From: Candidatus Scalinduaceae bacterium
GTDB lineage: Bacteria > Planctomycetota > Brocadiia > Brocadiales > Scalinduaceae
Assembly (NCBI GenBank): GCA_046757465.1
Contig: JBHHYH010000017.1
Location: 10,752 to 42,751, forward strand
Direction: 5' to 3'
DNA: 32,000 bases
Shown: piece by piece, positions 3,958 through 30,158 of the stretch
Layout: the number at the start of each line of letters is the position of its first letter
Position numbering within the stretch: the stretch's first letter is position 1
Notes under the pieces: model-generated
The model's database searches: none
What the model was told of the DNA's origin: nothing
The model's input: the letters and a program-made list of their open reading frames with translations, nothing else
Position numbers and translations under genes: made by a program

Positions 3958-4809
3958 ATGCGAAATCTTAATACAAAAGTGAGCATCTTTATATTGTTAC
4001 TCTGCACAATGTTGATCGGATGGGTAGACCCGGCTTCAGATAAAAATGAGGAAGGGATTCGTCTCTACAATGAAGAAAAACCTGACGAGGCAATCAGTAA
4101 ATTTACGGATGCGCAATCATACGCCCCAGAATCACAATCATTAGATTTCAACATAGCAAATACTCATTACAAGGAAGGTAAATTCCCTGAGGCTGAAAAA
4201 TCTTTTAAAGATGTTATGAAGACAAAAGATAATACCTTAAAAGCAAAGGCCAATTACAACTTGGGTAATACTATGTACAAACAGGGTAAATTCAAGGAAG
4301 CCCTTAACTTCTATAAAAAGGCTATTGAATTAACCGAGGAGAAGGAAAAGAGCAACTCGAAGGACAAAGAAACAGCAAGTATAAGAGAAGATGCTAAATA
4401 CAATTATGAATTTGTCCAGAAAAAGATGGAAGAGATGCAAAAGGAACAACAGGAAAGGCAAGAGCAAGAAAAACAAAAACAACAAGAGCAGCAAGAACAG
4501 GAGAAACAGGAACAGGAACAACAACAAGAAGAACAAGAAAAGGATAAACAGCAATCAGAAAAAGAAGACCCTGATCAACAAGAACAGCAAGACAAACAAG
4601 CTAAAGGGGAAAAGAATGAACAAATGAAAGAACGGCCACAAGAAAATGAAATGGAAGAACCACCCCCACCACCTCATGAAAAAAGAGAAATGACAAAGGA
4701 GGAAGCTGAAAGGATCCTTGAAGCTATGAAACAGGCAGAGATGGCCGCAAGAGATGCAAAGGAAAAAAAACATAAAGCTGCACAATTTAGCATTGAAAAG
4801 GATTGGTAA
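3958..4809 (+). CDS. batC: BatC-type TPR protein with E/Q/K-rich low-complexity tail
   Basis: Signal or TM N-terminus. TPR units (NIANTHYKEGKFPEAEKSF; YNLGNTMYKQGKFKEALNFYKKAIE). Then a long QEQ/KEQ tract and a PPPPP run. Confidence 0.75.
   Translation: MRNLNTKVSIFILLLCTMLIGWVDPASDKNEEGIRLYNEEKPDEAISKFTDAQSYAPESQSLDFNIANTHYKEGKFPEAEKSFKDVMKTKDNTLKAKANYNLGNTMYKQGKFKEALNFYKKAIELTEEKEKSNSKDKETASIREDAKYNYEFVQKKMEEMQKEQQERQEQEKQKQQEQQEQEKQEQEQQQEEQEKDKQQSEKEDPDQQEQQDKQAKGEKNEQMKERPQENEMEEPPPPPHEKREMTKEEAERILEAMKQAEMAARDAKEKKHKAAQFSIEKDW
4437..4600 (+). repeat. Low-complexity caa/gaa/cag codon tract (E/Q/K-rich region of batC)
   Basis: Translation QKEQQERQEQEKQKQQEQQEQEKQEQEQQQEEQEKDKQQ... This tract generates three spurious overlapping ORFs in the six-frame track. 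Confidence 0.8.
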
Positions 4810-10311: not shown

Positions 10312-11784
10312 CTAACTTACGGGAACACCATTTTCTACAGGGGCAGATACTGAAACAGCACTGCTCTTATACCAGTCTTGATAATAATCCCCGGAATCAT
10401 ATAATTTATGTAGATTTTCCAGTACCTGTTCAAAGACCTGTTGCCAGTCAGAACCAACCCTGAAGCCAAACATAGCGTTGCGTTTGCCATGCCTCGTACT
10501 ACCAATAGTCTTAAGTGACTTTCTAAAACGCATTCTCAGGTTGTCACCAGCATAAAGATGGTCATACATATATTGCATACCATCAATAAAATCTTCCAGG
10601 GTCATGTCAACAAATCTATGAACTACATGCGCAGTATCGTAATATTTCCAGTCAGCAGGATAATTCTTACGGAAAATCCTCTTTTCTGAATCCAATCTAT
10701 GATAAAGCTCAGTTTTTGGAAATGGACAATTGATACCAAAGGTAAGGACGTCAATGTTATTTTCCAATACAAATTCTGTCATCTTTTTGAATGAATCTTT
10801 ACCGTCTCCATCTGCTCCCAAGACTATGGACCCCCAAACAACAAGGCCGTGGTCATGAATCTTTTGAATGCAGTCATAATAATTATCCGTACCAAGTCTT
10901 AAATTGGTCTTTTTGTGCATCTTCTCCAGGACAGCTTCATTTGTCGATTCTATTCCACAGAGAAATCCAAAATTTCCACTCTTTGCCATCAGATCGAGCG
11001 CTTCCGCATCCTGCGATATATTAAGCGCCGTAAACCCTAGCCAATCCTTTTCGATACCTCTTTCTATCATCCCACGCCAGAGCGCCTTTGCCCTATTAGC
11101 AGAGTTCTTACTATGACCGTAGAAATTGTCCTCAGCAAACATTAGCCCCCTGTAATCGGTTGCCTCCATCTCATCCAGGACGTCTTCGTATGGCCTTTCC
11201 CTGAATTTTTTGCCCTGAAAGGTAGGGACGCTGCAGAAATCACAGTAATTCGGACAACCCTTCGTTGTAACAATAGAAGAGAACTTGTAATTATATTTCC
11301 TCTTCATGAGTTCTCTATTGGGAAAAACATGCTTCATTTCTGACAGGGCTGGCAACCCACCATTATAAACTTTTTTGAGCTGACCGTTTTCAAAATCCTT
11401 AATGACTTGAGGCCAGAGAGCCTCCGCTTCTCCCGTAAATATAGCATCAACGTATTTAGATGCTTCATCAGGCATTACGGATGCATGGATTCCGCCAATT
11501 ATCACGGTCATGCCTTTTTTTCTACATGCTTCAGCTATCTTGTACGCCCTTGCCACTTGATATGTAACAGAGGTCATACATACCAAATCAACAGGCTCAA
11601 AGGTTAATTCATCATTATCATCAAGGGCAAGTTCCAGATTCTCATCAATTACGTCAAACTCCCAGTCTCCGGGTGTAAGGGCGGAAATATATGCCAGATT
11701 TAAGGGCATTTGTACTATGACGGTTATACTTTCCTCACCATGCCTTCCCGGTGGGTGCGGATTGATAAGCATCATTTTTCTCAT
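10312..11784 (-). CDS. B12-binding-domain radical SAM enzyme
   Basis: N-terminal cobalamin-binding-like domain (DLVCMTSVTYQ...TVIIGGIHAS), followed by the radical SAM cluster motif CPNYCDFC (CxxxCxxC). Confidence 0.85.
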   Translation of the reverse strand: MRKMMLINPHPPGRHGEESITVIVQMPLNLAYISALTPGDWEFDVIDENLELALDDNDELTFEPVDLVCMTSVTYQVARAYKIAEACRKKGMTVIIGGIHASVMPDEASKYVDAIFTGEAEALWPQVIKDFENGQLKKVYNGGLPALSEMKHVFPNRELMKRKYNYKFSSIVTTKGCPNYCDFCSVPTFQGKKFRERPYEDVLDEMEATDYRGLMFAEDNFYGHSKNSANRAKALWRGMIERGIEKDWLGFTALNISQDAEALDLMAKSGNFGFLCGIESTNEAVLEKMHKKTNLRLGTDNYYDCIQKIHDHGLVVWGSIVLGADGDGKDSFKKMTEFVLENNIDVLTFGINCPFPKTELYHRLDSEKRIFRKNYPADWKYYDTAHVVHRFVDMTLEDFIDGMQYMYDHLYAGDNLRMRFRKSLKTIGSTRHGKRNAMFGFRVGSDWQQVFEQVLENLHKLYDSGDYYQDWYKSSAVSVSAPVENGVPVS

Positions 11785-11796
11785 TTTATTCTCCTC

Positions 11797-13242
11797 CTAA
11801 TTATTTAAAATCATATTCGCCACCCTCCAACCAGAGGATACAACCGCGCATACCCCTGGTCCCGGGTTTGTCCAATGTCCTGCTAGAAATAGATTATTGA
11901 AAGGTGTTTTATGTTGAAGTCTATTCGACCATGTCTGATCCACTGTAACAGCCCAACCGTAGGCAGCGCCTTTTGAATTGAGTGTATAGCGTTTAAGTGT
12001 CTTCGGTGTTGCTGCTTCGATAACGTCAATATGATTTCGGATGTTGGGAACAAGAGTTTCAAGATATTTTAATGTATATTCTTTCATTTCTTCTTTAAAG
12101 GTAACCCAATTTTCAATATCACCATAGTCTTCTTTTAAGGATACAACAACAGAAATTATTTGCTTTTCATCAGGGGCAAGACTTTTATCCGTTTTTGTCG
12201 GTACCGATATATAAAACCAACCATTATTGGAAAAACTTATATCATCTGACGTATGGTAAAAACCTCTTTTTAGTGCTTTTAAGTCAATGCCTTCATCAAG
12301 ACCCAGATACAATAGAAAAAATGAAATACTTTCCTTCATTGACTGGATCTTATGAAGATAGGAATCGTTAACTTCCTTTTCTTCTATTAACTCGGAAAAG
12401 GTCTGCTTTGGATCGATGTTTGATACAAAAACATCAGCAAAAAACTCTTTTCCTTTATTTGTCAAGACTCCTTTCACAAGTGTATCCCTTATATATATCT
12501 TGTTGACGGTAGAAGATAGCATAATTTGACCGCCATAGTCAATGAATTTTTGAGCAATCGCATCGGCGAAATTTTGGGTGCTGCCCACAGGGTAAAAAGC
12601 CCCATCCTTTAGATAATTTACCAGCATCTGGCACATACCAATAGCCGAGACTTCGTGAGGAGGCGAACCGATGTAGCCCCATTGTGCGGACAAGATAGCT
12701 TTAAGTTGCTCATCAGTAAAAAACTTATCTAACATTTCCTTGTAAGTAACATCTTGATATTTAGTTAGCAATTTACTTCGTTCAGCCCTAACCGTAGACC
12801 GATACAGTCCCACAAATTCTTTAAAAAAGGATGATAAATTTTCACTTTCAGATGTAAACCGTTGTTTTAGCAAATTGACGTAATCATCAATCTCGGCAGG
12901 AATATCTATAGAGAAAGAAGGAAAATTTATGCTGTCCATAGGATCAAGTCTTAAAAAATTAATATTTATATCAAGTTCTTTAAGGCTTCTACCGACTATA
13001 CTCCATTTTCCGCATCCACCAATGTGGTGAACCGCTGCGTCGAAAATAAAGCCTTTTCTTTTGAAAGAAGTGCAGTAACCCCCGGGTATATTATGTTGTT
13101 CAATTATCAAAACTTTTTTTCCACTTTTTGCTAAGAAAGCGCCGCAGATTAGTCCTCCAATCCCAGCCCCTAATATAATTACGTCATACTTGGATTGTAT
13201 TTTGGATTCATCTAAGGAAAAGTCACGTGTAGAAACGGCCAT
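11797..13242 (-). CDS. FAD-dependent oxidoreductase, CrtI / phytoene-desaturase-like
   Basis: Dinucleotide-binding motif DVIILGAGIGGLICGAFLAKSGKKVLIIE. The length (481 aa) and C-terminal GHWTNPGPG are typical of the CrtI family. Confidence 0.8.
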   Translation of the reverse strand: MAVSTRDFSLDESKIQSKYDVIILGAGIGGLICGAFLAKSGKKVLIIEQHNIPGGYCTSFKRKGFIFDAAVHHIGGCGKWSIVGRSLKELDININFLRLDPMDSINFPSFSIDIPAEIDDYVNLLKQRFTSESENLSSFFKEFVGLYRSTVRAERSKLLTKYQDVTYKEMLDKFFTDEQLKAILSAQWGYIGSPPHEVSAIGMCQMLVNYLKDGAFYPVGSTQNFADAIAQKFIDYGGQIMLSSTVNKIYIRDTLVKGVLTNKGKEFFADVFVSNIDPKQTFSELIEEKEVNDSYLHKIQSMKESISFFLLYLGLDEGIDLKALKRGFYHTSDDISFSNNGWFYISVPTKTDKSLAPDEKQIISVVVSLKEDYGDIENWVTFKEEMKEYTLKYLETLVPNIRNHIDVIEAATPKTLKRYTLNSKGAAYGWAVTVDQTWSNRLQHKTPFNNLFLAGHWTNPGPGVCAVVSSGWRVANMILNN

Positions 13243-13374
13243 ATAGTACCTTATTTCTTAAATCTTGAATAATTCTGGCAAAACATGTTCCTGACAGGCC
13301 CAGGAATATATATCAATAGAATTTCTCTGAAGTTAGGAAAGGTTAAGGGTTAGGAGGCCGGTGTAGTAGTCGGG

Positions 13375-13476
13375 CTAAGGTAAGGTAAAGATCGATTAAC
13401 TACTTAACCCACCCGCCCGTACCGAACTGTACGTTCGGGCGGGTTGACCAAACTGGCATCTTTACCCTAACCTAAC
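13375..13476. repeat. GC-rich imperfect palindrome inside the lipid operon
   Basis: Central hairpin acccgcccg (13411-13419) / cgggcgggt (13436-13444). It is flanked by ctaaggtaaggtaaagat (13375-13392) and atctttaccctaacctaac (13458-13476). Confidence 0.7.
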
Positions 13477-13555
13477 AACTTAACCAGATGTATATTAGTA
13501 CCTGTTTGGTTCTGGTCGTACCTTCGGCAGAGGCGCCGGGACGAACTTGTCCAGG

Positions 13556-14791
13556 CTAGGAGTATCTTGATATGATTAAGGATGAGATGTTGCCTGTATC
13601 TGAAAAGTCGTCAACCAGGACGTTTTTTACGTCTAATTTTCTGCTTTTATTAGGTACATAATCTAAATCGCATTCATCGTCCACTTCTTGATAATTTATT
13701 GTTGGAGGTATAACACTGTTGTTAATTGCCATTATACTTGCAACACTTTGCATTGCACCCGACGCGTCAAGGCACTCCCCCGTCATTGATTTTATAGCAC
13801 TTATGGGCACTTTCTTAGCATAACCACCAAAGTAGTCTTTAATAACCCTGGTTTCCATTCTATCACCCGTTATGCTGGAGTTTGCGCATGCAGATATGTA
13901 AGAGATGTCGTCAATATTAAGTTCCGCATCTTTCATTGCCAAAGAAATGCATCTTATACCCTCTTTAGTATCTAAATTGTCGTGGTAAATCTTTTTCGGA
14001 TTAAAGGTGTTTCCGTAACCCTTTATCTCGGCATAAATTCTTGCGTTTCTTTTTAATGCGTCCTCGAGCCTTTCTATCGCCATTAATGCAGCAGCTTCAC
14101 CAATTACGAAACCGTTGCGCCTTTTGTCATATGGTGTTGAAATCTCAATGGCGCTATCTTTGTAACCTGCTAATATTCCAGACCTGTAAGCTCCCCAAAA
14201 TATGTCCGGGGTTAAACCGTGAACTCCCCCAGCCAAAACCGCCTTCACCCTGCCTAACCTCAGGAAATCAGAGGCGTAAATAATAGCATCAAGGCCACTG
14301 GTAACTCCAGTAGATATAGTGGAGTTAAGGCCCGTGGCTTTGCAAAATATAGAGGCCCTGCTTGCAGGAGCATTTAGAACTGTATTTGGGAAGGCCATTG
14401 GATTAACATAATTAGGACCTTCCCTTAACGCTTCAAAGTCAAATGTACTGATACTATCTATACTGCCATAAGTAGAACCGATTACAATTCCTAAATCTTC
14501 CTCAGTATAGATTTCGTGCGTTATTTTAGCATCGTCCATTACAAGCTTTGCGGCTGAAGATGCCAATAGCGAAGTCCTGTCTATATGTCGTATTCCTTTC
14601 TTGCCCAAAAACACCTTTGCATCAAAATCTGATATCTCTCCCGCCTTCTTGCTCCTGTATTTGGATACGTCAAATAGTGTAATATCCTTTATCCCGGAAA
14701 CACCTTTTGTCAAATTGCTCCAAAACTCGTCTTTATTTACACCGATTGGTGACAAAATGCTAATACCTGTTATAACTAATCGAGTATCCAT
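13556..14791 (-). CDS. Ketosynthase-like protein lacking the catalytic Cys (chain-length-factor-like partner)
   Basis: Full-length thiolase-fold KS homolog. The active-site TAC-AAG is replaced by STGVTSG (Val163, codon 14303-14305). AHGTGT is replaced by ACANSS, and GHT by GEC. Confidence 0.8.
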   Translation of the reverse strand: MDTRLVITGISILSPIGVNKDEFWSNLTKGVSGIKDITLFDVSKYRSKKAGEISDFDAKVFLGKKGIRHIDRTSLLASSAAKLVMDDAKITHEIYTEEDLGIVIGSTYGSIDSISTFDFEALREGPNYVNPMAFPNTVLNAPASRASIFCKATGLNSTISTGVTSGLDAIIYASDFLRLGRVKAVLAGGVHGLTPDIFWGAYRSGILAGYKDSAIEISTPYDKRRNGFVIGEAAALMAIERLEDALKRNARIYAEIKGYGNTFNPKKIYHDNLDTKEGIRCISLAMKDAELNIDDISYISACANSSITGDRMETRVIKDYFGGYAKKVPISAIKSMTGECLDASGAMQSVASIMAINNSVIPPTINYQEVDDECDLDYVPNKSRKLDVKNVLVDDFSDTGNISSLIISRYS

Positions 14792-14873
14792 TACAATTGT
14801 TCCGTTGAAAAATTATCCCATAAAAAAAAGTTAATGGCCTTGTTCTAAGATACCATTAACAATTTAAATACTA

Positions 14874-14920
14874 AAGGGACAGGCTTCCTTTTTTATAAAA
14901 AAGATGCCTGTCCCTCTAAA
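14874..14920 (-). repeat. Conserved intergenic hairpin element (copy 2, KS to KS-like gap)
   Basis: agggacaggc...gcctgtccct is a perfect 10-bp stem flanking a T6-ata-A6 core. It has the same orientation relative to transcription as copy 1. Confidence 0.8.
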
Positions 14921-14951
14921 CATATATGAACTTGCTGAATTCTTGCACTTT

Positions 14952-16169
14952 TTAACCCGTAAACTTTTTTAATACAAGACAACTATTGTTACCGCCAAAA
15001 GCGTAAGCATTATTTAAGGCTATATTTACTTGCATCTCACGTTTTACATTAGGAACAAAATCTAGATCACACTCCGGATCTTTAGTTTCATAGTTTATTG
15101 TGGGAGGCACTATGTCTTCTTTAACAGCTAATGCACATGCGATAGCTTCTATTGCACTGGCAGCTCCCATTGTATGCCCTATCATAGATTTTATAGAAAT
15201 CACAGCCAAACGCTTTGAATGTTCTCCAAATACTTTCTTAATAGATATTGTTTCGGCCTTGTCATTAGCAACGGTTCCAGTACCATGTGCACTTATATGC
15301 TGAACATCCTCAGGCTTGATGTTGGCGTCTTTTAAGGCCTTTCTCATCGCAGACACGACACCATTTCCCTCTGGTTGTGGAATTGTGATATGATATCCGT
15401 CACAGCTTAGACCGTAACCCAGAATTTCTGCATAGATATTTGCATTCCTTGCTAATGCATCTTCCATCGATTCTAATACCAGCATCCCGGCGCCTTCACC
15501 AATTAACATTCCTTTTCTATTTTTGTCAAAAGGCTGGCATACCTCTGGCGCAATAGCATTCAGTTTGCTAAAACCAACGTAAGCTACTTTAGAAAAAGGA
15601 TCCGTACCGCCGGCTACCATAATATCTGCTCTTCCCAATCTTATCAGGTCGCATGCATAGCCAATAGCATAATTCCCTGCGGCACATGCAGTGGGAATTA
15701 TTGTATTTGGGCCCTCAAACCCGAATTCGATAGCTATGTTTGATGGAATATTGTTGCATGGGTGCTTAAGGAATAGATCTGCATCTACGTTATCATCTCC
15801 CTTTTCATATCTTAATTGGTTTACCCTTTCTAAAATTTGAATTTCACCCGCAGTTGTGCCGATTGAAACACCGACTCTTTCAAGATCAACATTTTTTACG
15901 TCAATTTTAGAGTCATCTAAGGCTAGCTTAGTTGCTGCGATTGCAAATTGTGATCCCTTGCCAACTTTTCTTGAACCGTTACTTATATAGTCTTCATACT
16001 TGAAATCTTTAACTTCACAACCGTTATGTACTTTAAAATCAGATGTGTCAAACGCCTTGACTTCCGAGGCTCCGGATACGCCGGAAGTTAATGCATCCCA
16101 GAAAATATCTTTATTGCATCCTATGGGGGATATTACACCTACACCAGTAATTACAATTCTTTTATCCAT
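14952..16169 (-). CDS. fabF: Beta-ketoacyl-ACP synthase II (FabF-type), catalytically intact
   Basis: Active-site PTACAAG (Cys162, codon 15684-15686). His motifs YHITIP and [19 protein letters not shown]. Confidence 0.9.
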
Positions 16170-16231
16170 AAATTTTTTTTATCTAAATTGAGCGATTTAT
16201 ATATTTCACTTGTCATTTCGACTCCTTCACT

Positions 16232-16360
16232 CCTGTCATTCCGAACGAAGAGAGGAATCCGCTTTGGGCTCGGTATTATATTACGCAAAATCCAAGATTA
16301 CGGGAGAAATCTTAACGCTTGCCGTTGTAGAAGATTTCTCGCTACACTCGAAATAACAGG
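16232..16360. repeat. REP/MITE-like inverted-repeat element (GTCATTC...GAATC family)
   Basis: cctgtcattccgaacgaagagaggaatc (16232-16259) is an imperfect inverted repeat of gatttctcgctacactcgaaataacagg (16333-16360). Confidence 0.65.
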
Positions 16361-16482
16361 TCAAAACGAGTATTTTCACCTAATAATGATTGAAGATAAT
16401 GGTTATGCTATGTCTCATAATTTAAACGGAATAACAATAAAATGAAAAACAAATCACTCAATTTAAGTTATATTACCGAGAA

Positions 16483-16938
16483 TCAATCCTTTAGAGATTC
16501 TCTTTCGGCTACACCAAAACTTAATGTAGCCTTCGAAACGATCTTTTCTCCCACTCTGGCTATGCCCTTCACTATCGCTGCATTAGAAACAACTTTTTCG
16601 GTATTGATTTCTAAAATAAGTTGGTCGCCTGGAAAGACTGGTTTTGAGAAGCGGACGTTAGCCGAGGCCAACAAAAAGACCTTGTCTTTGTCCTTGTCAG
16701 CATCAAAACTCTTTCTAAAGAGTATGATTGATGCTTGGGCCATGGCTTCTAAGATTAAGACTCCTGGCATTATGGCAAAATCCGGAAAGTGTCCAACGAA
16801 GAACGATTCATTACCGGAAATATTCTTTAAACAAACAATTTTGCTTTCCTTCTGAAACTCAACAACTTTATCAATAAATAAGAACGGATATTTTTGAGGA
16901 ATCAACTTTCTTATTTCCTCAAAGCTCAACATTTGCAA
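16483..16938 (-). CDS. fabZ: 3-hydroxyacyl-ACP dehydratase (FabZ-type)
   Basis: Hotdog-fold motifs IPQKYPFLFIDKV and VGHFPDFAIMPGVLILEAMAQ. Confidence 0.9.
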   Translation of the reverse strand: MQMLSFEEIRKLIPQKYPFLFIDKVVEFQKESKIVCLKNISGNESFFVGHFPDFAIMPGVLILEAMAQASIILFRKSFDADKDKDKVFLLASANVRFSKPVFPGDQLILEINTEKVVSNAAIVKGIARVGEKIVSKATLSFGVAERESLKD

Positions 16939-22490: not shown

Positions 22491-22961
22491 CCCTTTTTAA
22501 AGACCCCTGCCTCAAATGCCAAAATTGCTTTCTTAACCCTTTCTGTACCCGTCTCCCTTGCCTTTTTTTTAATTCTTTAAAAACCTGGCAATCGTTTTAA
22601 CAAATTCTTTGGTATCAATGGGTTTGGAGATGAACGCATCACAACCAGCATTCATTATCATTTTTTTTTCTTCCTTCATTGTGCTGGCTGAACAGACTAT
22701 AAGAGTTATATTCTTTGTTATGGAATATTGTTTAAACTTTCTAACTAATTCTACCCCTCCTATATCCGGAAGCCCAGAGTCCAATAATATTAGATCCGGT
22801 ATTTCTGACTTAGCCATGTTAAACCCCTCTTTTCCATTGACAGCTTGAAGGATTAAATAACCCTCATCCTCAAGGAGGTCACTGAACAACTCCATATTCA
22901 TTAGATTGTCTTCGATGATAAGTATCCTTCCTTTAGCCATTCTTCCTCCTTAAGGGAATAG
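22491..22961. repeat. Direct repeat copy A (471 bp, period 529 bp)
   Basis: Nearly identical to 23020-23490. Contains the whole REC gene, its downstream intergenic sequence and the last ~27 bp of the kinase gene. Confidence 0.9.
22569..22940 (-). CDS. Single-domain response regulator (CheY-like), duplicate copy A
   Basis: ILIIEDN...DLILLDSGLPDIGG...ISKP. Differs from copy B at only two residues (G4/E4, L13/A13). Confidence 0.85.
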   Translation of the reverse strand: MAKGRILIIEDNLMNMELFSDLLEDEGYLILQAVNGKEGFNMAKSEIPDLILLDSGLPDIGGVELVRKFKQYSITKNITLIVCSASTMKEEKKMIMNAGCDAFISKPIDTKEFVKTIARFLKN

Positions 22962-23019: not shown

Positions 23020-23490
23020 CCCTTTTTAAAGACCCCTGCCTCAAATGCCAAAATTGCTTTCTTAACCCTTTCTGTACCCGTCTCCCTTGCCTTTTTTTTA
23101 ATTCTTTAAAAACCTGGCAATCGTTTTAACAAATTCTTTGGTATCAATGGGTTTGGAGATGAACGCATCACAACCAGCATTCATTATCATTTTTTTTTCT
23201 TCCTTCATTGTGCTGGCTGAACAGACTATAAGAGTTATATTCTTTGTTATGGAATATTGTTTAAACTTTCTAACTAATTCTACCCCTCCTATATCCGGAA
23301 GCCCAGAGTCCAATAATATTAGATCCGGTATTTCTGACTTAGCCATGTTAAACCCCTCTTTTCCATTGACAGCTTGAAGGATTAAATAACCCTCATCCTC
23401 AAGGAGGTCACTGAACAACTCCATATTCATTGCATTGTCTTCGATGATAAGTATTCTTTCTTTAGCCATTCTTCCTCCTTAAGGGAATAG
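23020..23490. repeat. Direct repeat copy B (471 bp)
   Basis: See copy A. The few mismatches cluster at the 5' end of the REC gene. A 58-bp unique spacer (22962-23019) separates the copies. Confidence 0.9.
23098..23469 (-). CDS. Single-domain response regulator (CheY-like), duplicate copy B
   Basis: Same motifs as copy A. The start overlaps the histidine kinase stop by 8 nt. Confidence 0.85.
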   Translation of the reverse strand: MAKERILIIEDNAMNMELFSDLLEDEGYLILQAVNGKEGFNMAKSEIPDLILLDSGLPDIGGVELVRKFKQYSITKNITLIVCSASTMKEEKKMIMNAGCDAFISKPIDTKEFVKTIARFLKN

Positions 23491-26305
23491 TGAAGATAAA
23501 AGTGCTTCCTTTTCCGAATTCGCTCTCAACCCAGATCTTTCCGCCATGTAACTCCACTAGCTCTTTGGTTAAGACCAACCCCAATCCGGTGCCCCCGTGT
23601 TTTTGTGTATACTCACTCTCAATTTGGCGAAAGGTCTCAAAAAGTTTATCCATATCTTCTTCTTTTATGCCGATACCGGTATCGACCACTGAAACCCGTA
23701 GTTCCTCATCCTTAATATCAGCCCTGACGTCTACCTTGCCGCCTTCAGGGGTAAATTTTATAGCGTTGGATAGCAGGTTATACATAATCTGCTTTATCTT
23801 CCTCTCATCAGCTTTTAAAACAGATATCTCAGGTACAATATGGCTCTCTATGGTAATTTTTAATCTAAAAGCTAACTCCTTGAGGATAGTTTTAATGCCC
23901 TCTATGAGTTTTGGAAATGAGAATTCACTCGACACAAGTTCTAGCTTGCCAGCCTCAATTTTTGAAAGGTCTAGAATGTCATTGATTAAGCTTAAGAGAT
24001 CCTTGCCTCCTACGAGGATATTAGTTATGTATCTGGCTTGTTTCTCAGTAAGCTTGCCAACTCTTTCACTTTGCAATACATCGGCAAAGCCAATAACGGA
24101 ATTTAAAGGAGTTCTTAGCTCGTGAGACATATTGGCTAAGAATTCAGACTTGGCGCTGCTGGCCTTCTTTAAATGTTTGTTAAGCGTAACAAGTTCTCTA
24201 GTTCTTTCCTCAACTTTCTTTTCTAACTCTTCTCTTGCCTGGTTGTTATCATCTAACATACTTACCATTATTTCGCGGGATTTTACTGCCTCTTTTAAGG
24301 TCTGATCCAACTTCTCCTCCATCTTCCTTCTTTGTGTTATGTCAGACATAATATGACAGAACCCGACAAGAGTTCCCTTTTCATCCAGCACCGGATATGC
24401 AATTACATCGAGCCAACTATCACCAACCAGTAAAATACTGCTTTCTCTTTTATGTGTCTTCATCACCTTTACGGTAGGGCACTCTCCAATAGGTTCTGCC
24501 GCACCGTAAATAAATTTACAGCAAGACGTGCCGACAATTTCTCCAAATGGCTTTTTTGCCATATTAACCATTGCCTTGTTGCACCTTACAATCTTTCCGT
24601 CCTTATCTAGAAGGCTAATAGCATCACCCATAGCATCGAATGTTGTCCGCCACTCTCTTGCAGAATTACTCAGCGCTTCATCTAACTTCTTGCGCTCGGT
24701 GATGTCTTCTGCAACTTTAAAGAAATAGGTAGCGTCATCTTCAGGATTCTTTATAGATGAGATGGATGCGGACTCCCAGTAGAGCTCACCACTTTTTTTC
24801 TTATTATGAAATTCACCGCTCCATGTACCTCCTGTGGTAATAGTCTCCCAGAGTCGTTTGTATTCTTCGGTTGATTTTTCGCCCGATTTTAAGATGCGCG
24901 GGTTCTGCCCGATGACATCTTCTGGGGTGTAGCCTGTCACTTGTGTAAACTTTGGATTAACATATTCGATGTTGCCTTTGGCGTCCGTAATCATAACCAT
25001 ACTAGGACTTCGTTCGACTACACTAGATAACTTTTGAATCTGCTCTTCTGCCTTCTTGCGCTTGGTGATCTCTCTCGCGTGAATGCGCAAAACTTTAAAC
25101 TCTGGTATAAGATATATATCTTCTTCAAATGTTAAACTCCCTATTTTTATAATGCGGTATAATCGTGTTTCCATTTTTCCCCTTAAAGCTTTAATGATTT
25201 CATTTAAGTCCTCTGGTAAAAATAGGGTTAAGTCTTCTTTGAGACCTGACTTCTTTAGAACCTTAGAAGCTGCATTGTTGTGAAAAATAATGCCCCCAGA
25301 AAGATTTATCTCTAAAATAGGGCTGATATCCAACTGTGGGAAGGAGGCAAGGTGGCTAATTTCTTTTTCCGCCATCTTGCGCTCGGTGATGTTTTCCTTA
25401 ACAGCTATGAAATGAGTTATAATACCTTCTGAGTTTTTGATAGGTGAAATAGATGCGGACTCCCAATACAGTTCCTTGTTCTTCTTTTTGTTACAAAATT
25501 CTCCACGCCATTCACCACCTGACGTAATAATCTTCCATAAACGTTCGTATTCATCAGGTGGTGTCTTACCCGATTTTAAGATACGTGGATTTTTACCAAT
25601 AGCCTCTTCGAATGTATATCCAGTCAGTTGAGTGAACTTGGGATTAACATATTCGATGTTACCTTCAGTATCTGTGATCAAGACCGTGGACGGGCTTTGT
25701 TCTATGGCGTGAGAAAGCTTGTGTATCTGCTCTTCTGCCTTTTTACGCTTAGTGATGTCTCTTATTATGCCTATTGCATTCCACTTGCCTCTTATCTTTA
25801 CTGCCGAAAGAGATAATTCTATTGGAATTTCTGCTCCATCTTTCCTGACAGCCGCAACTTCTACCGTTTTTCCTATCATATTACCCACTCCTGTAGTCTT
25901 GAATCTTTCGAACCCTTTTAAATGTCTTTCGCGGAATCTCTCTGGTATAATTAATTGTTGTAGGTTTTCCCCTACGGTTTCCTCACTTGAGTAACCAAAG
26001 ATTCTTTCGGAGGCTTTATTCCAATAAGAAATCCTTTCATCATTACTCAACATAATGATAGCATCTTGAGCTGAAGTGGTTATTTCTCTGAACTTCTCTT
26101 CACTTTCACGTAACATATGCTCCATGTGTTTGCGCTTCTTTATTTCCTGCATTAAGGCATTTTTTGCTATCTCTAATTCACTGATTAGAGCCTTAGATTC
26201 TTCTTTCCTGATCTCAGATTCCAAAGTTAGGTGAGCTTTTTTGTGCAGCGATTCTTTCGGGGTTTCAACAGACAACTTATTGTTACTATCAGGTGAAGAT
26301 TTCAT
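23462..26305 (-). CDS. Multi-PAS sensor histidine kinase
   Basis: N-terminal coiled coil. Four PAS-type modules separated by ITxRKKAEE linkers. H-box MSHELRTPLN (His728, codon 24122-24124). HATPase boxes NLLSNAIKFTP, DTGIGI, GGTGLGL. Confidence 0.9.
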   Translation of the reverse strand: MKSSPDSNNKLSVETPKESLHKKAHLTLESEIRKEESKALISELEIAKNALMQEIKKRKHMEHMLRESEEKFREITTSAQDAIIMLSNDERISYWNKASERIFGYSSEETVGENLQQLIIPERFRERHLKGFERFKTTGVGNMIGKTVEVAAVRKDGAEIPIELSLSAVKIRGKWNAIGIIRDITKRKKAEEQIHKLSHAIEQSPSTVLITDTEGNIEYVNPKFTQLTGYTFEEAIGKNPRILKSGKTPPDEYERLWKIITSGGEWRGEFCNKKKNKELYWESASISPIKNSEGIITHFIAVKENITERKMAEKEISHLASFPQLDISPILEINLSGGIIFHNNAASKVLKKSGLKEDLTLFLPEDLNEIIKALRGKMETRLYRIIKIGSLTFEEDIYLIPEFKVLRIHAREITKRKKAEEQIQKLSSVVERSPSMVMITDAKGNIEYVNPKFTQVTGYTPEDVIGQNPRILKSGEKSTEEYKRLWETITTGGTWSGEFHNKKKSGELYWESASISSIKNPEDDATYFFKVAEDITERKKLDEALSNSAREWRTTFDAMGDAISLLDKDGKIVRCNKAMVNMAKKPFGEIVGTSCCKFIYGAAEPIGECPTVKVMKTHKRESSILLVGDSWLDVIAYPVLDEKGTLVGFCHIMSDITQRRKMEEKLDQTLKEAVKSREIMVSMLDDNNQAREELEKKVEERTRELVTLNKHLKKASSAKSEFLANMSHELRTPLNSVIGFADVLQSERVGKLTEKQARYITNILVGGKDLLSLINDILDLSKIEAGKLELVSSEFSFPKLIEGIKTILKELAFRLKITIESHIVPEISVLKADERKIKQIMYNLLSNAIKFTPEGGKVDVRADIKDEELRVSVVDTGIGIKEEDMDKLFETFRQIESEYTQKHGGTGLGLVLTKELVELHGGKIWVESEFGKGSTFIFTIPLRRKNG

Positions 26306-27045
26306 ACTTTACCTTCCAATTTAAAGATATTTCCAGTCATCTCAGGTCTCAGTGTGATTAACTTTACAGAAGGATTTAGGCTGAGAAACAAATTTGCCGT
26401 TTCATTGCTGATTTTCTCCCTGCTGAAGATAATAATAACATAAATCATATCAGTCTTATACCACCCCCCAAATCCAAACACTGACTCGATACCAAAGGGT
26501 TCAACAAACTCTGCCTGTTTAGGAATGAGTTTACTCCCCCTGGCCTCTTCGACACAAAAAATCCCGAATTCATGTTCTTCCCTGTCGATTATGATGCTTT
26601 TATCAGCTTTTGCTAGCTCAGAGATATTGAAACCTATCTGACTTAAAAGAGCTGATAGCATAGGAATATCGTAAACTATGCGAGCGTCATATAAAGGCAA
26701 AGCCTGGTGTCCTTTAGATTCTTTTCTGCAATTCCACTCTTTCAAATCTCCCGAAGTTCCCAACAAGGTTAAGTATCTATTTTGAGCAGGCATTTTTTCT
26801 CTACCCTCGTTATGTTGAATGTATTTTTTTATATCATCCGGAAGTTCTTCATATATACATGATTTAAAAAATCGACTTAGAACGAAGGCTCTCTCTCCAC
26901 TATTGGTAATAAAGACCTGGCAGAATGTGTTCATTAGTTCCTGGGTAGTTTCTTCTAAGCTTGATAATCCCTTGCACCTTTCTTTAATGAACTGAGATAG
27001 TTCGAATATATTAGTTAGAGTCAATTCCTTAACTTTAATTTGCAT
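26302..27045 (-). CDS. Protein of unknown function, translationally coupled to the PAS kinase
   Basis: A 247-aa ORF with no recognisable motif. Its stop overlaps the kinase start (ATGA at 26302-26305). Soluble mixed alpha/beta character. Confidence 0.6.
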   Translation of the reverse strand: MQIKVKELTLTNIFELSQFIKERCKGLSSLEETTQELMNTFCQVFITNSGERAFVLSRFFKSCIYEELPDDIKKYIQHNEGREKMPAQNRYLTLLGTSGDLKEWNCRKESKGHQALPLYDARIVYDIPMLSALLSQIGFNISELAKADKSIIIDREEHEFGIFCVEEARGSKLIPKQAEFVEPFGIESVFGFGGWYKTDMIYVIIIFSREKISNETANLFLSLNPSVKLITLRPEMTGNIFKLEGKV

Positions 27046-27287: not shown

Positions 27288-28847
27288 TTATGACTTTTTA
27301 TCACCCAGCCTTGCCTCCAGTTTCTCTACCCTCTTTTTTAATTCCACTATTCGCTCTTCACGACCGATGTTTGCCTTGTAAAATACCTCGAGTTCGTGTA
27401 AATGTTTTTCTCTCTCCTTTTCCATCTTTTTGCGTTCGGTGATCTCAGCACGAAGTTGCTGTTCATCTACCTTTAATTGTTGATTAGAGGCCCTTAGTTG
27501 TTGCTCGCTTGCCCTTAGCTGCTGGTTTGTGGCTTTTAGCTGCTGCTCGCTCGCCTGTAGTTGTTGGTTTGCGGCTTTTAGCTGCTGCTCGCTCGCCCTT
27601 AGCTGCTGCCCGCTCGCTTTTAACTGTTGGTTAGCAGCTTCCAGCATCTCTTCAGCCTTTTTGCGCTCGGTAATCTCTTCATTCAACTTATCACGCGATG
27701 TGATGATTGTTTTTAAGTTATCCGTCATTTGATTGAAGGCAACAGCCAATTTGCCAAGTTCATCTCTGGATTTAATATTCACCTTAGCAGTCAGGTCACC
27801 TTTGCCAACAGTACTTGATGCATCTGCCAGCTTGCGGATAGGGTTGGCTATGCCTCGGGAAAAAGCTACGGCGACAATCACCACTAAAATGCCAATAATA
27901 ATCAAAACAAAAAATAATTTTATTCTTAAAGCAGTCACGGGAGCAAATGCTTCTTTTGTATCAATTTTACCCACTATCCCCCATTTCATTGATGGAAGAT
28001 GTTTCCAAACTGCCAGTATTTCTTCCTTTCTATAATCTATAGATAAACCTTTACCTCCCTTCCCTTGCACAGATTCCTGGATTGGTAGTGCCAGATTGCT
28101 TCCTAGAATAACTGTAGGCGGATCATTAGTATGACGTAACTGAGTAATAAATTTTATTTTATGACCCACCTTCTGACCAAGTAATATTTCCCCCGTCTCT
28201 CCCAATCCTTCTTGATCATTTGTAATATCATTCAAAACTTGAGCTCTTACTTTAAATAAAACTGCTCCGGCAAACTTCGCATCTTCATAATCTCTGATTG
28301 CCTGGAGAAAAATCAGGAATTCTTCTCCCGTTAAGGGATCAGTATTAAAACCGCCAAAGAATGTTCCCTTTGACTTTACACCTTGTAAGTAATGATCAGG
28401 CATCTTCTTACCGACAAGTTCTTTGTTTGTGTTAGCAACAATAGTTCCCTTAGTATCCCAAATACCGATAATCTCAATCGCAGTGGCTTTATCAATATCA
28501 CCATACCCACTCTTTGGCTGCATTTTCATCTCTTCAAGAATAGATTCAATATTGGCCTGGATTTTAGCAATATCTTCTGGGTCATTAACCCCACTTGATT
28601 CCAATTGTCTGGGTAAAAAAGTTCCAGCAAGTTCTTTGGCCTGCTCCTGCCGCAGTTGAATTAAGTGAGTAATATCAGACACACGTGAATTAGTGACTGC
28701 TTCCAAACTTGCGAAAGCCTGCTTTTTCAGATTAGCCCTGGCGCTATCATAGCTTATATAGCCCACAATGCCAACCGGCACAATTGAAACAACTAAAAAC
28801 AATACTATCAATTTAGTCCGCAAGCTTCTGGTAATAAAATTTGTCAT
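27288..28847 (-). CDS. Cache-HAMP membrane receptor ending in a coiled coil, with no kinase or MCP signalling domain
   Basis: TM1 (LIVLFLVVSIVPVGIVGYI). Extracytoplasmic domain of about 280 aa, of dCache size. TM2 (LFFVLIIIGILVVIVAVAF). HAMP (PIRKLADAS...ELGKLAVAFNQMTDNL). Then nine QQ heptads and a 53-aa helical tail. Confidence 0.8.
   Translation of the reverse strand: MTNFITRSLRTKLIVLFLVVSIVPVGIVGYISYDSARANLKKQAFASLEAVTNSRVSDITHLIQLRQEQAKELAGTFLPRQLESSGVNDPEDIAKIQANIESILEEMKMQPKSGYGDIDKATAIEIIGIWDTKGTIVANTNKELVGKKMPDHYLQGVKSKGTFFGGFNTDPLTGEEFLIFLQAIRDYEDAKFAGAVLFKVRAQVLNDITNDQEGLGETGEILLGQKVGHKIKFITQLRHTNDPPTVILGSNLALPIQESVQGKGGKGLSIDYRKEEILAVWKHLPSMKWGIVGKIDTKEAFAPVTALRIKLFFVLIIIGILVVIVAVAFSRGIANPIRKLADASSTVGKGDLTAKVNIKSRDELGKLAVAFNQMTDNLKTIITSRDKLNEEITERKKAEEMLEAANQQLKASGQQLRASEQQLKAANQQLQASEQQLKATNQQLRASEQQLRASNQQLKVDEQQLRAEITERKKMEKEREKHLHELEVFYKANIGREERIVELKKRVEKLEARLGDKKS
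27450..27638 (-). repeat. 21-bp tandem repeat (9 units, 42-bp higher-order alternation) encoding A-x-x-Q-Q-L-K/R heptads
   Basis: The DNA units ttagctgctgctcgctcgcc / ttagttgttggtttgcggct recur head to tail. Translation: AANQQLK ASGQQLR ASEQQLK AANQQLQ ASEQQLK ATNQQLR ASEQQLR ASNQQLK VDEQQLR. Confidence 0.9.
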
Positions 28848-29101: not shown

Positions 29102-29398
29102 TTATTTGCCATTATTAGTTAAAATACCAATTCTATTTATCAAATAACCCAAAACAGAATCTACAATTTCTTTTGAAATACTCACTTCCCCTAGTACATC
29201 TGCTCCACCCACAAGGTTTATCTCTAAATCTTTTATCTCGGCGACCAATTTCCTCATCGTATTGAACAAAACATCTAATGCATCGTTTGGCGTTTTACCG
29301 GTAAAAATTCTTCCTCTACCGATGCCTTCAGATACTTCGATCCTAAATAGAATAAAGAGAAGTTCTAATTCCCGTTGAATTCTTGCTGCGCTTTCATA
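29102..29398 (-). pseudogene. cheD-like relic (middle/C-terminal part only, no start codon)
   Basis: A 98-codon open frame begins right after a TGA and has no ATG near its 5' end. NDALDVLFNTMRKLVAEIKDLEINLVGGADVLGE aligns by eye with RDAIENLLFKMTRLGTVKDNISACLVGGGNVLQD of the adjacent intact CheD. Confidence 0.4.
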
Positions 29399-29909
29399 TC
29401 AACACTCTCCTCCCGCCGCATTTATATAATAGTTTTTCGCCTCCGTCGCCCTCTGTATAAAATACCTCTCCTCTCTCAATGTCAATAAAGACGCTTCTTC
29501 TCTTAATCCCGCCCAGGATCTTTGCCACTATTTTTATTCCATTTTTCGTAAGAAGCTCTATAACCGAGTTTATAACTGCTTTGCAAATCGTATCGTCCTT
29601 GTCTTGAAGCACATTTCCTCCCCCAACGAGGCATGCGCTAATATTATCTTTTACAGTTCCCAATCGGGTCATCTTGAATAACAAATTCTCTATCGCATCC
29701 CTGGCATATTTGGTATTATGAAGAAATTGTCCTTCTGTCGATTGACCAGGAAGCATGACATGTGCTAATGCGCCTATTTTTTTCTTTGTATCATAAGCCG
29801 CAATAACACAGCAGGAACCTATCCCATCCGCTCTTAATATTACCCTTCTTCCGGTGGCCCAGACTTCTCCTGTTTGTACAAAAATATTCGCTTTCATGTC
29901 GAGTTCCAT
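29394..29909 (-). CDS. cheD: Chemoreceptor glutamine deamidase CheD
   Basis: GIGSCCVIAAYD...IGALAHVMLPG. The Cys33 and His50 spacing of 17 is the same as I recall for the catalytic Cys/His of characterised CheD. LVGGGNV and a C-terminal GG..R motif are also present. Confidence 0.85.
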   Translation of the reverse strand: MELDMKANIFVQTGEVWATGRRVILRADGIGSCCVIAAYDTKKKIGALAHVMLPGQSTEGQFLHNTKYARDAIENLLFKMTRLGTVKDNISACLVGGGNVLQDKDDTICKAVINSVIELLTKNGIKIVAKILGGIKRRSVFIDIERGEVFYTEGDGGEKLLYKCGGRRVLI

Positions 29910-29912
29910 TTA

Positions 29913-30158
29913 CTAATACCTTTTAATTTTAGCATTGAGCTTACGAATTTCCTCTTTCAATTCCCGTATCCGCTCTTCACGACCAATGGTTGCCTTGTAA
30001 AATATCTCGAGGTCGCGTAAATGTTCTTTAGTCTCATCTTCCATCTTTTTGCGCTCTGCACAAATCTCTGCCTCGCGTATCTCTCACTCAATTGCAGCAG
30101 TAAGACGTATCAGATTGTCTTTCAACAGGTAGTCGTGCGCGCCCTTTTTTTCACAGCG
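29913..30158 (-). pseudogene. Relic of a REC C-terminus fused to a coiled-coil tail, interrupted by an in-frame TGA
   Basis: Minus-strand translation: RCEKKGAHDYLLKDNLIRLTAAIE*EIREAEICAERKKMEDETKEHLRDLEIFYKATIGREERIRELKEEIRKLNAKIKRY*. GAHDYLLK is a receiver alpha4-beta5 motif. The tail is paralogous to the last ~50 aa of the Cache-HAMP protein. Confidence 0.45.

Follow-up and report, generated by a model that had tools for sequence, protein, structure and literature searches.

What does an unbroken run of glutamine pairs do in a bacterial sensor protein that is encoded close to a gene for the chemotaxis deamidase, CheD? This question is raised by a 32,000-nucleotide stretch of DNA from a Candidatus Scalinduaceae bacterium, an anammox planctomycete (positions 10,752 to 42,751 of contig JBHHYH010000017.1, assembly GCA_046757465.1), which we refer to as the window. 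Residues 404–466 of a 519-amino-acid (aa) protein encoded in the window form an array of nine Gln-Gln heptads, located between a HAMP domain and a conserved C-terminal tail. CheD enzymes deamidate Gln to Glu at A/S-x-x-Q/E-Q/E-x-x-A/S sites on receptor helices, and the covalent modification of receptors by CheR, CheB, and CheD is considered a defining difference between chemotaxis and ordinary two-component systems. The initial annotation of the window, made from its letters, proposed that the array is a multi-site target of CheD, and comparative genomics now strongly backs this proposal, in the form of gene adjacency and of conserved, apparently exposed positions in the array. Judged by these comparisons, the pairing of such arrays with CheD in sensors that are not chemoreceptors is real, specific, and apparently undescribed. 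We further consider it probable that a dedicated CheD clade has the array as its cognate target, converting Gln to Glu at multiple sites, and that the array serves to tune signal transmission.

The pairing was examined from both sides. In the forward direction, we used 80 metagenome loci that were picked solely by their similarity to a synthetic nine-heptad array, 69 of which were testable. Open reading frames (ORFs) in the loci were called by a simple script, many of the contigs are short, and the taxonomy of metagenome-assembled genomes (MAGs) is approximate. In 49 of the 69 loci, cheD directly precedes the array gene on the same strand, typically with a gap of 9–100 bp and in some cases with an overlap. 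It is convergent and abutting in four others, and lies elsewhere in the locus in a further four, giving 53 loci in which cheD abuts the array gene and 57 in which it is found within the locus. In the reverse direction, six CheD homologs were chosen only for their long contigs; all six abut a sensor kinase with 3–14 heptads, and none of the six lies within a chemotaxis cluster. The array proteins of the cheD-linked metagenome loci are kinases of 450–1350 aa with quite different domain sets (HisKA_3, HisKA plus REC, HisKA_2/HWE, or GAF-PAS-HisKA), and cheD-adjacent array proteins also include the kinase-less HAMP-tail type found in the window. As far as these sequences tell, the array is the only element common to cheD-adjacent proteins of such unrelated architecture.

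A third sample was drawn through the C-terminal tail, which occurs at 197 loci in species-representative genomes. Among the best 79 of these 197 loci, six carry an array and all six of those also carry CheD, while 72 have neither (Fisher p = 2.5e-8); one further tail-family locus with CheD carries a degenerate array. At five loci (L002–L006), cheD ends 0–100 bp ahead of the HAMP-array-tail gene, and at two more (L081 and L082), cheD and the array-tail gene abut or overlap, with a sensor kinase gene next. A natural control is provided by the closest relative of the window protein, P0002 from a Scalindua MAG, which is 72% identical over the Cache-HAMP part and has HisKA-HATPase in place of the array and tail. 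Around this array-less gene, cheD is absent over 5.7 kb on the upstream side and 8 kb on the downstream side. Pairwise identity among the 54 array-linked CheDs has a median of 44%, and they fall into 40 clusters at 70% identity, and because of this diversity the association is not an artifact of redundancy. The named sources include Planctomycetota (Brocadiia and Sedimentisphaerales), Omnitrophota, and Auribacterota. When 160 neighboring ORFs were clustered, receiver-domain proteins were the sole other recurrent partner. The adjacency to cheD, on which the initial annotation leaned, is therefore conserved well beyond this locus, as the forward and reverse samples, the Fisher test, and the P0002 control all indicate.

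We also considered the possibility that the tail is the element linked to CheD. This was rejected, as ~70 array-less tail proteins have no cheD, and the two loci in which CheD is fused to PAS domains and the tail (L045 and L073) hold an array gene just upstream. The tail is present in only three of the 80 array-selected loci.

How well does the array itself match the sites that CheD acts upon? Translation of the ORF gave the nine back-to-back heptads originally described, letter for letter: AANQQLK, ASGQQLR, ASEQQLK, AANQQLQ, ASEQQLK, ATNQQLR, ASEQQLR, ASNQQLK, and VDEQQLR. The units are contiguous over 63 aa and have the consensus A-[AST]-[N/E]-Q-Q-L-[K/R]. Every heptad had been called a perfect match to the consensus for modification sites of methyl-accepting chemotaxis proteins (MCPs). 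In its short form, [ASTG]-x-x-[EQ]-[EQ]-x-x-[ASTG], this holds for seven of the nine, whereas heptads 8 and 9 each fail at one flank because of Val460. Shuffled versions of the array protein gave a mean of 0.76 and a maximum of five matches to the same pattern. With respect to helix geometry, placing L at heptad position d and N/E at a puts the Gln pair at b/c, while placing L at a and the small residue at d puts it at f/g. We attempted to use the register as grounds for dismissing the resemblance to MCP sites. This failed, since under the first of these assignments the pair would be at b/c, the register of genuine MCP sites, in which the modified residue is at c.

The array belongs to a family that, by the measure of a full HMMER scan, is rare and discrete, and that has apparently not been described before. 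Among 1.84 billion representative sequences, the 63-aa array matched 916 proteins at E<=1e-3 and 263 at E<=1e-10, and about 90 of the 120 best database matches carry the same heptads, in positions that follow HAMP, separate PAS domains, or form kinase N-termini. We found no publication on Gln-Gln arrays, nor any on CheD in connection with kinases, repeats, or gene neighborhoods, or as an orphan. In two-component sensors, the arrays are inserted into helical linkers (behind HAMP, from one PAS domain to the next, or ahead of the kinase dimerization domain), and the number of heptads per protein varies from 3 to 23, always as whole heptads. A logo of 560 heptads reads A (91%), A/S/T (73%), N (53%) or E (40%), Q (95%), Q (97%), L (99%), and R/K (59%), which confirms the expectation that homologs keep the A-x-x-Q-Q register, rather than being arbitrary Q-rich coils. 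Such a pattern is the reverse of that of an ordinary coiled coil. Positions 1, 4, and 5 are near-invariant though not all of them can belong to the core, while position 7 varies, and for this reason the conservation suggests a solvent-exposed recognition surface rather than a packing requirement.

The same comparison bears on whether the array might be nothing but a polar coiled-coil rod, fixing how far apart and in what phase the modules stand, with the adjacency to cheD having no functional meaning. Whole heptads in variable number would suit such a role, as would their phase: the flanks of the array keep the L-every-seven pattern and are in register with the adjoining linker helices. The array is enclosed by a duplicated EITERK(K) motif, the PAS domains of the neighboring kinase end in the same motif, and ITERKK motifs of this kind are generic to PAS linkers. 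An AlphaFold 2 (AF2) monomer model of the 519-aa protein (mean predicted local distance difference test score, pLDDT, 80.8) predicts a single helix from residue 417 to 514 that passes through the array, the linker motif, and the tail, and it shows a break, modeled with low confidence, at residues 402–416; being a monomer, the model cannot tell the oligomeric state or the register. With 63 aa in exactly nine heptads between HAMP and the tail, and a helix predicted by AF2, the array indeed looks like a signaling-helix linker. However, a mere spacer would not be expected to show an association with cheD that is bidirectional and extends across architectures and phyla, nor to have its conserved positions on the exposed face, and generic linkers would not be as rare as this family. 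We therefore consider a purely structural role to be quite improbable, and favor a conserved surface that CheD recognizes.

At the DNA level, the array had been described as a 21-bp tandem repeat. Tandem Repeats Finder did detect periods of 21 bp and 42 bp, the latter with 83% matches and a score of 174. N and E alternate almost strictly at the third position throughout the family (218 N-to-E, 212 E-to-N, and 40 N-to-N transitions), and the real repeat unit is therefore 14 residues, or 42 bp. It had also been suggested that the copy number could vary by slippage, which would make the array a contingency locus with a phase-variable linker length. The detection of the repeat is in keeping with this idea, as are the identity of units 3 and 5, which share an exact 25-bp repeat located 42 bp apart, and the 3–6 heptads found in relatives of the same HAMP-array-tail architecture, compared with nine in the window. 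Yet units 3 and 5 are the sole identical pair. The remaining pairs share only 9–18 of their 21 bases, CAG and CAA codons are intermixed across the units, and what is conserved is the protein. Furthermore, the gene is unchanged in a second, independent assembly. The array protein is 100% identical to P0001 from a Candidatus Scalinduaceae MAG. The predicted variation in repeat number exists between homologs and is absent between the two assemblies. Slippage as a current mechanism is rejected because the units have diverged at synonymous sites, and we regard a contingency locus as extremely unlikely.

Is the associated CheD likely to be an enzyme? The initial annotation reported an intact cheD ~0.5 kb upstream on the same strand, and its product indeed retains the catalytic Cys and His. 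It matches PF03975 with an E-value of 3.3e-17 (63 bits, against a cut-off of 25), and T. maritima CheD (PDB 2F9Z_C) with an E-value of 8e-17, such that Cys33 and His50 align with the catalytic residues. All nine NCBIfam CheD equivalog models score far under their cut-offs (the best at 89.7 bits against 240), and on these scores we assign the protein to a divergent subfamily. In an alignment of the 54 array-linked CheDs, the catalytic Cys is invariant (54/54), and the catalytic His lies within a conserved AH[IV]MLPG block. By these residues, the array-linked CheDs look catalytically competent.

The alternative is that the array is a multivalent platform for docking CheD, which would be a stoichiometric regulatory subunit that performs little catalysis or none. 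There are parallels, in that the binding of CheD to B. subtilis receptors activates signaling, and a helix of CheC mimics a receptor site and holds CheD. All of the association data fit docking equally well, the usual co-transcription of cheD and the array gene would suit a complex, and the near-absolute preference for Q over E would be more readily understood if Gln were the functional end state. The Ala that occupies the Thr position of the triad in the window CheD points in the same direction. On the other hand, an invariant Cys in 54 diverged CheDs, together with the conserved His block and a third residue that is mostly Ser, would be needless for pure binding, and up to 23 heptads per protein is far beyond the need of one partner. 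On balance, we think docking alone to be unlikely, and deamidation by CheD the better explanation.

Deamidation would most likely proceed as follows. Each array gene would have a partner gene encoding a divergent CheD of its own, which would recognize the exposed A-x-x-Q-Q-x-x-A face that recurs in each heptad, and convert Gln to Glu at many sites in the array. If all sites were converted, each heptad would go from a net charge of ~+1 or 0 to one of ~-1 or -2, and a near-neutral helix would turn strongly acidic. In chemoreceptors, Gln mimics methyl-Glu, and helix packing and kinase output depend on the charge of the adaptation region. By analogy, the change in charge of the array should affect how stable the linker coiled coil is or how it packs, and hence the transfer of the signal from sensor to output, which in the window protein would be the conserved C-terminal tail and probably also the downstream PAS kinase. 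Two-component sensors would then have an adaptation-like module in the array. No gene for a reversing enzyme lies nearby, and the Q-to-E change may therefore be one-way, serving either as a maturation step or as a cumulative record of signaling that is reset only by protein turnover.

A number of points weigh against this scheme. The deamidation itself, and its effect on signaling, are what we infer from the known chemistry of CheD. Gln is kept at ~95%, though Glu is only one base away and, were the arrays simply converted to Glu, its direct encoding should be tolerated; together with the lack of a reversing enzyme nearby, this means that conversion is probably conditional or slow, or that binding occurs without turnover. 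The third triad position, Thr in T. maritima, is Ala27 in the window CheD, and across the 54 linked CheDs it is Ser in 40, Ala in 11 (including that of the window), and Thr in one. The identities of the triad residues, like the short form of the site consensus, are as reportedly described for CheD. The genes do not abut here but are 546 bp apart, cheD being the upstream one. In the forward sample, 12 of the 69 testable loci have no cheD, and the ranking of these loci by similarity to an idealized array could have favored a cheD-linked clade. Finally, the published full consensus for MCP sites, [ASTG]-[ASTG]-x2-[EQ]-[EQ]-x2-[ASTG]-[ASTG], is the 10-residue Alexander-Zhulin form (quoted in PMC6829392 and PMC6391922). 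None of the nine heptads fits it, although five of its six specified positions are satisfied, because the first position is K, R, or Q in the array.

The unusual gap may have an explanation. The gap holds a 55-aa ORF with weak similarity to the middle of CheD, possibly a decayed partial duplicate of cheD. Such a duplicate would account for a distance that is unusually long compared with related loci, in which the genes abut.

No cheA, cheW, cheR, cheB, cheC, or MCP gene was found in the window or in eight neighborhoods annotated with Pfam. The suggestion that the array might also be methylated by CheR is consequently not supported, as neither cheR nor cheB occurs in any annotated neighborhood. 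The same absence bears on a further proposal, namely that the array is a sink or decoy that titrates CheD away from true chemoreceptors and thereby modulates chemotaxis. The array motif does mimic receptor sites, and Cache sensors of the same family exist as fusions to an MCP signaling domain (P0003). Nevertheless, there are no chemoreceptors or other chemotaxis genes nearby, the CheD clade is too divergent to reach the equivalog cut-offs, and most arrays lie between the sensor and catalytic domains of active-looking kinases, where an array would affect the signaling of the kinase itself. We regard a sink for the chemotaxis CheD as very unlikely because these cheD genes lie outside chemotaxis clusters, and retain the array as the probable cognate target of its own CheD.

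The features of the locus are collected in Table 1.

Table 1. Features of the array locus, with their positions in the window and the basis of each assignment
Feature	Position	Strand	Basis
PASx4-HisKA-HATPase sensor kinase	23462..26305	-	Pfam
247-aa protein, no Pfam/NCBIfam family	26302..27045	-	Downstream of array gene
dCache-TM (transmembrane)-HAMP-array-tail sensor gene, 519 aa	27288..28847	-	ORF call, Pfam, NCBIfam
Conserved C-terminal tail MEKEREKHLHELEVFYKANIGREERIVELKKRVEKLEARL, aa 475-514	27306..27425	-	Alignment; AF2 helix continuous with array
Second EITERK motif, C-terminal side of array	27429..27446	-	Sequence motif
Gln-Gln array, 9 heptads, aa 404-466	27450..27638	-	Translated ORF and repeat finding
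First EITERK linker motif, N-terminal side of array	27660..27677	-	Sequence motif
HAMP domain, aa 329-379	27711..27863	-	Pfam PF00672, E 6.4e-16
Periplasmic dCache-like sensor domain, aa 40-293	27969..28730	-	Pfam dCache_1 E 5.7e-5, below gathering score
55-aa ORF, weakly like middle of CheD	29102..29269	-	33% identity over 57 aa, pairwise E 0.003, tentative
cheD, 171 aa, divergent subfamily	29394..29909	-	PF03975; PDB 2F9Z_C match
43-aa tail-only ORF (MEDETKEHLRDLEIFYKATIGREERIRELKEEIRKLNAKIKRY)	29913..30044	-	60% identity over 40 aa to aa 475-514, E 2e-13

As first reported, the 519-aa protein lacks an MCP signaling tip and a kinase domain: a Pfam scan found no MCPsignal (PF00015), HisKA, or HATPase domain. 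NCBIfam gave partial matches only, through the HAMP region, and the Pfam matches to the array were solely spurious hits to coiled-coil families such as Tropomyosin and Exonuc_VII_L; the copy of Pfam that we used has no model for the array or the tail. The same Cache sensor is joined to HisKA-HATPase in P0002 and to an MCPsignal domain in P0003, and the array plus tail would, on that comparison, be an alternative output module of the Cache-HAMP sensor. The tail that follows the array and the second EITERK motif reads HLHELEVFYKANIGREERIVELKKRVEKLEARL, and is probably an output or assembly helix.

The tail is a family in its own right. Its core, LEVFYKAsIGREERIlELKK, defines the 197 loci referred to above, which are mostly in Omnitrophota and Planctomycetota, with several paralogs per genome. 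It has no match in our copies of Pfam or NCBIfam, and usually ends kinase-less PAS sensors directly after ITERKK; a variant, FMVDRELRIIELKKEVNxL, also exists. A second copy in the window is the 43-aa ORF, whose stop codon is 3 nt ahead of the ATG of cheD. In frame upstream of it, after a stop codon, the translation reads ..AEICAERKK. The ORF probably represents the last 43 codons of a lost PAS-ITERKK-tail gene, since the order [PAS-tail]-cheD-[HAMP-array-tail] occurs in L005 and L006.

Downstream of the array gene, the gene for the 247-aa protein shares 4 bp with the start of the PAS kinase gene. The only homolog of this protein that we found lies directly after a tail gene in L026, and a single-sequence AF2 model was unusable (pLDDT 37.7). 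The PASx4-HisKA-HATPase kinase is the likely downstream partner of the kinase-less array sensor; a sensor kinase likewise follows the array-tail gene in L081 and L082.

Several other features were recorded. A recurrent domain of ~110 aa often follows the array in kinases (L084, L086, L094, L116, L126, L131, L132, L136, and L141). It is marked by RVKELNCLYG...AWQYPEIT...DEGPFL, has no model in our copy of Pfam, and has the pattern RVKELNCLYGLS...AWQYPEIT.ARI.F.G..FKT.NF..T.W.Q.ADI...G.K.G.IEV.YL...P..DEGPFL.EER.LL. Elsewhere in the window, two single-domain response regulators (22569-22940 and 23098-23469, minus strand) are a tandem duplicate with a period of 529 bp and differ at two residues. 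A cluster on the minus strand (10312-16938) encodes a B12/radical-SAM (S-adenosylmethionine) enzyme, an amine-oxidase-like flavoprotein, two ketoacyl synthases, and a FabA-like dehydratase, and is reminiscent of the gene clusters proposed for the ladderane lipids of anammox bacteria. On the plus strand, AAC/AAG-rich tandem repeats with periods of 9, 15, and 27 bp (4463-4566) are located at the overlap of a TPR gene with a BatD-like gene, and would encode a low-complexity N/K/Q run.

Taken together, the comparisons suggest that ordinary two-component sensors have acquired covalent modification in the style of chemoreceptors. If this is true, the principle would extend to histidine kinases and kinase-less HAMP sensors that have no other che genes. 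It would also reassign the function of the array-linked genes annotated as "chemotaxis protein CheD" in genomes of the PVC (Planctomycetes-Verrucomicrobia-Chlamydiae) group, which here concerns Planctomycetota (including anammox bacteria), Omnitrophota, and Auribacterota, and would provide a new and easily recognized CheD substrate motif. One small enzyme and one repeat peptide would make a simple test system for the effect of linker-helix charge on kinase output, and the design principle that is suggested is that of an enzymatically switchable coiled coil.

How does the array compare with systems that are already known? The signaling helix, or S-helix, and the "S-box" ITERK linkers of PAS proteins are parallel coiled-coil linkers that, like the array, run from sensor to output, and the array is bracketed by ITERKK with its heptad phase kept. 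S-helices reportedly occur as single segments of ~40 residues with conserved core positions and no dedicated modifying enzyme, and they differ from the tandem arrays with their conserved and exposed Gln pairs. In the CheC-CheD complex, a protein that is not a receptor offers a receptor-like helix to CheD, as is predicted for the array. CheC is said to carry a single mimic site and to act as a phosphatase of phosphorylated CheY in chemotaxis, whereas the arrays present many tandem sites inside sensor proteins, with no cheC present.

A counterpart with Glu pairs is found in CheB/CheR-fusion proteins, in which runs of S-[AT]-N-E-E-L-Q heptads lie next to PAS_10 (P0121–P0198, as annotated by the Joint Genome Institute, JGI). 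In L169 (5001-5246 and neighbors), such a run is located between CheR and PAS_10-PAS-HisKA-HATPase. These kinases share with the array the small-small-N-Glx-Glx-L-polar heptad, its place in a linker ahead of PAS or kinase domains, and the pairing with an MCP-modifying enzyme; they differ in that the pair is EE, the runs are shorter, and CheR (with CheB) is fused in cis rather than being a separate CheD. The EE runs of CheR-fused kinases could be in-cis methylation sites; we found no publication on such runs, nor any paper stating that the EE runs of CheB/CheR-fusion kinases are modified. Glx heptad runs in kinase linkers therefore occur twice with MCP-modifying enzymes, as QQ with CheD and as EE with CheR. 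A wider idea, which we put forward tentatively and hold to be somewhat less probable than its negation, is that Glx-heptad arrays are a portable adaptation or memory cassette, with QQ served by a dedicated CheD and EE by CheR/CheB in cis. If so, histidine-kinase pathways would have chemoreceptor-style tuning of helix charge in the absence of CheA, CheW, or an MCP, and the CheD/QQ version would be a high-capacity, one-way counter of signaling history with 10–46 sites per protein.

The adaptation region of MCPs, which is deamidated by CheD in B. subtilis and T. maritima and by CheB in E. coli, likewise presents Glx pairs with small flanking residues, spaced in heptads along an exposed face. In both systems a CheD-family enzyme is encoded beside its target (in the case of the array, its predicted target), and Gln is encoded where the uncharged state is wanted. 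Unlike MCPs, the array proteins have neither the MCP signaling domain nor the four-helix hairpin, and no CheA, CheW, CheR, or CheB is encoded nearby. Their pairs are nearly always QQ, compared with mostly EE in MCPs, and K, R, or Q stands at the first position of the consensus. The hosts are histidine kinases, or a kinase-less HAMP sensor as in the window, and in place of the four to six scattered sites of an MCP, their sites follow back-to-back in each heptad, up to 23 times.

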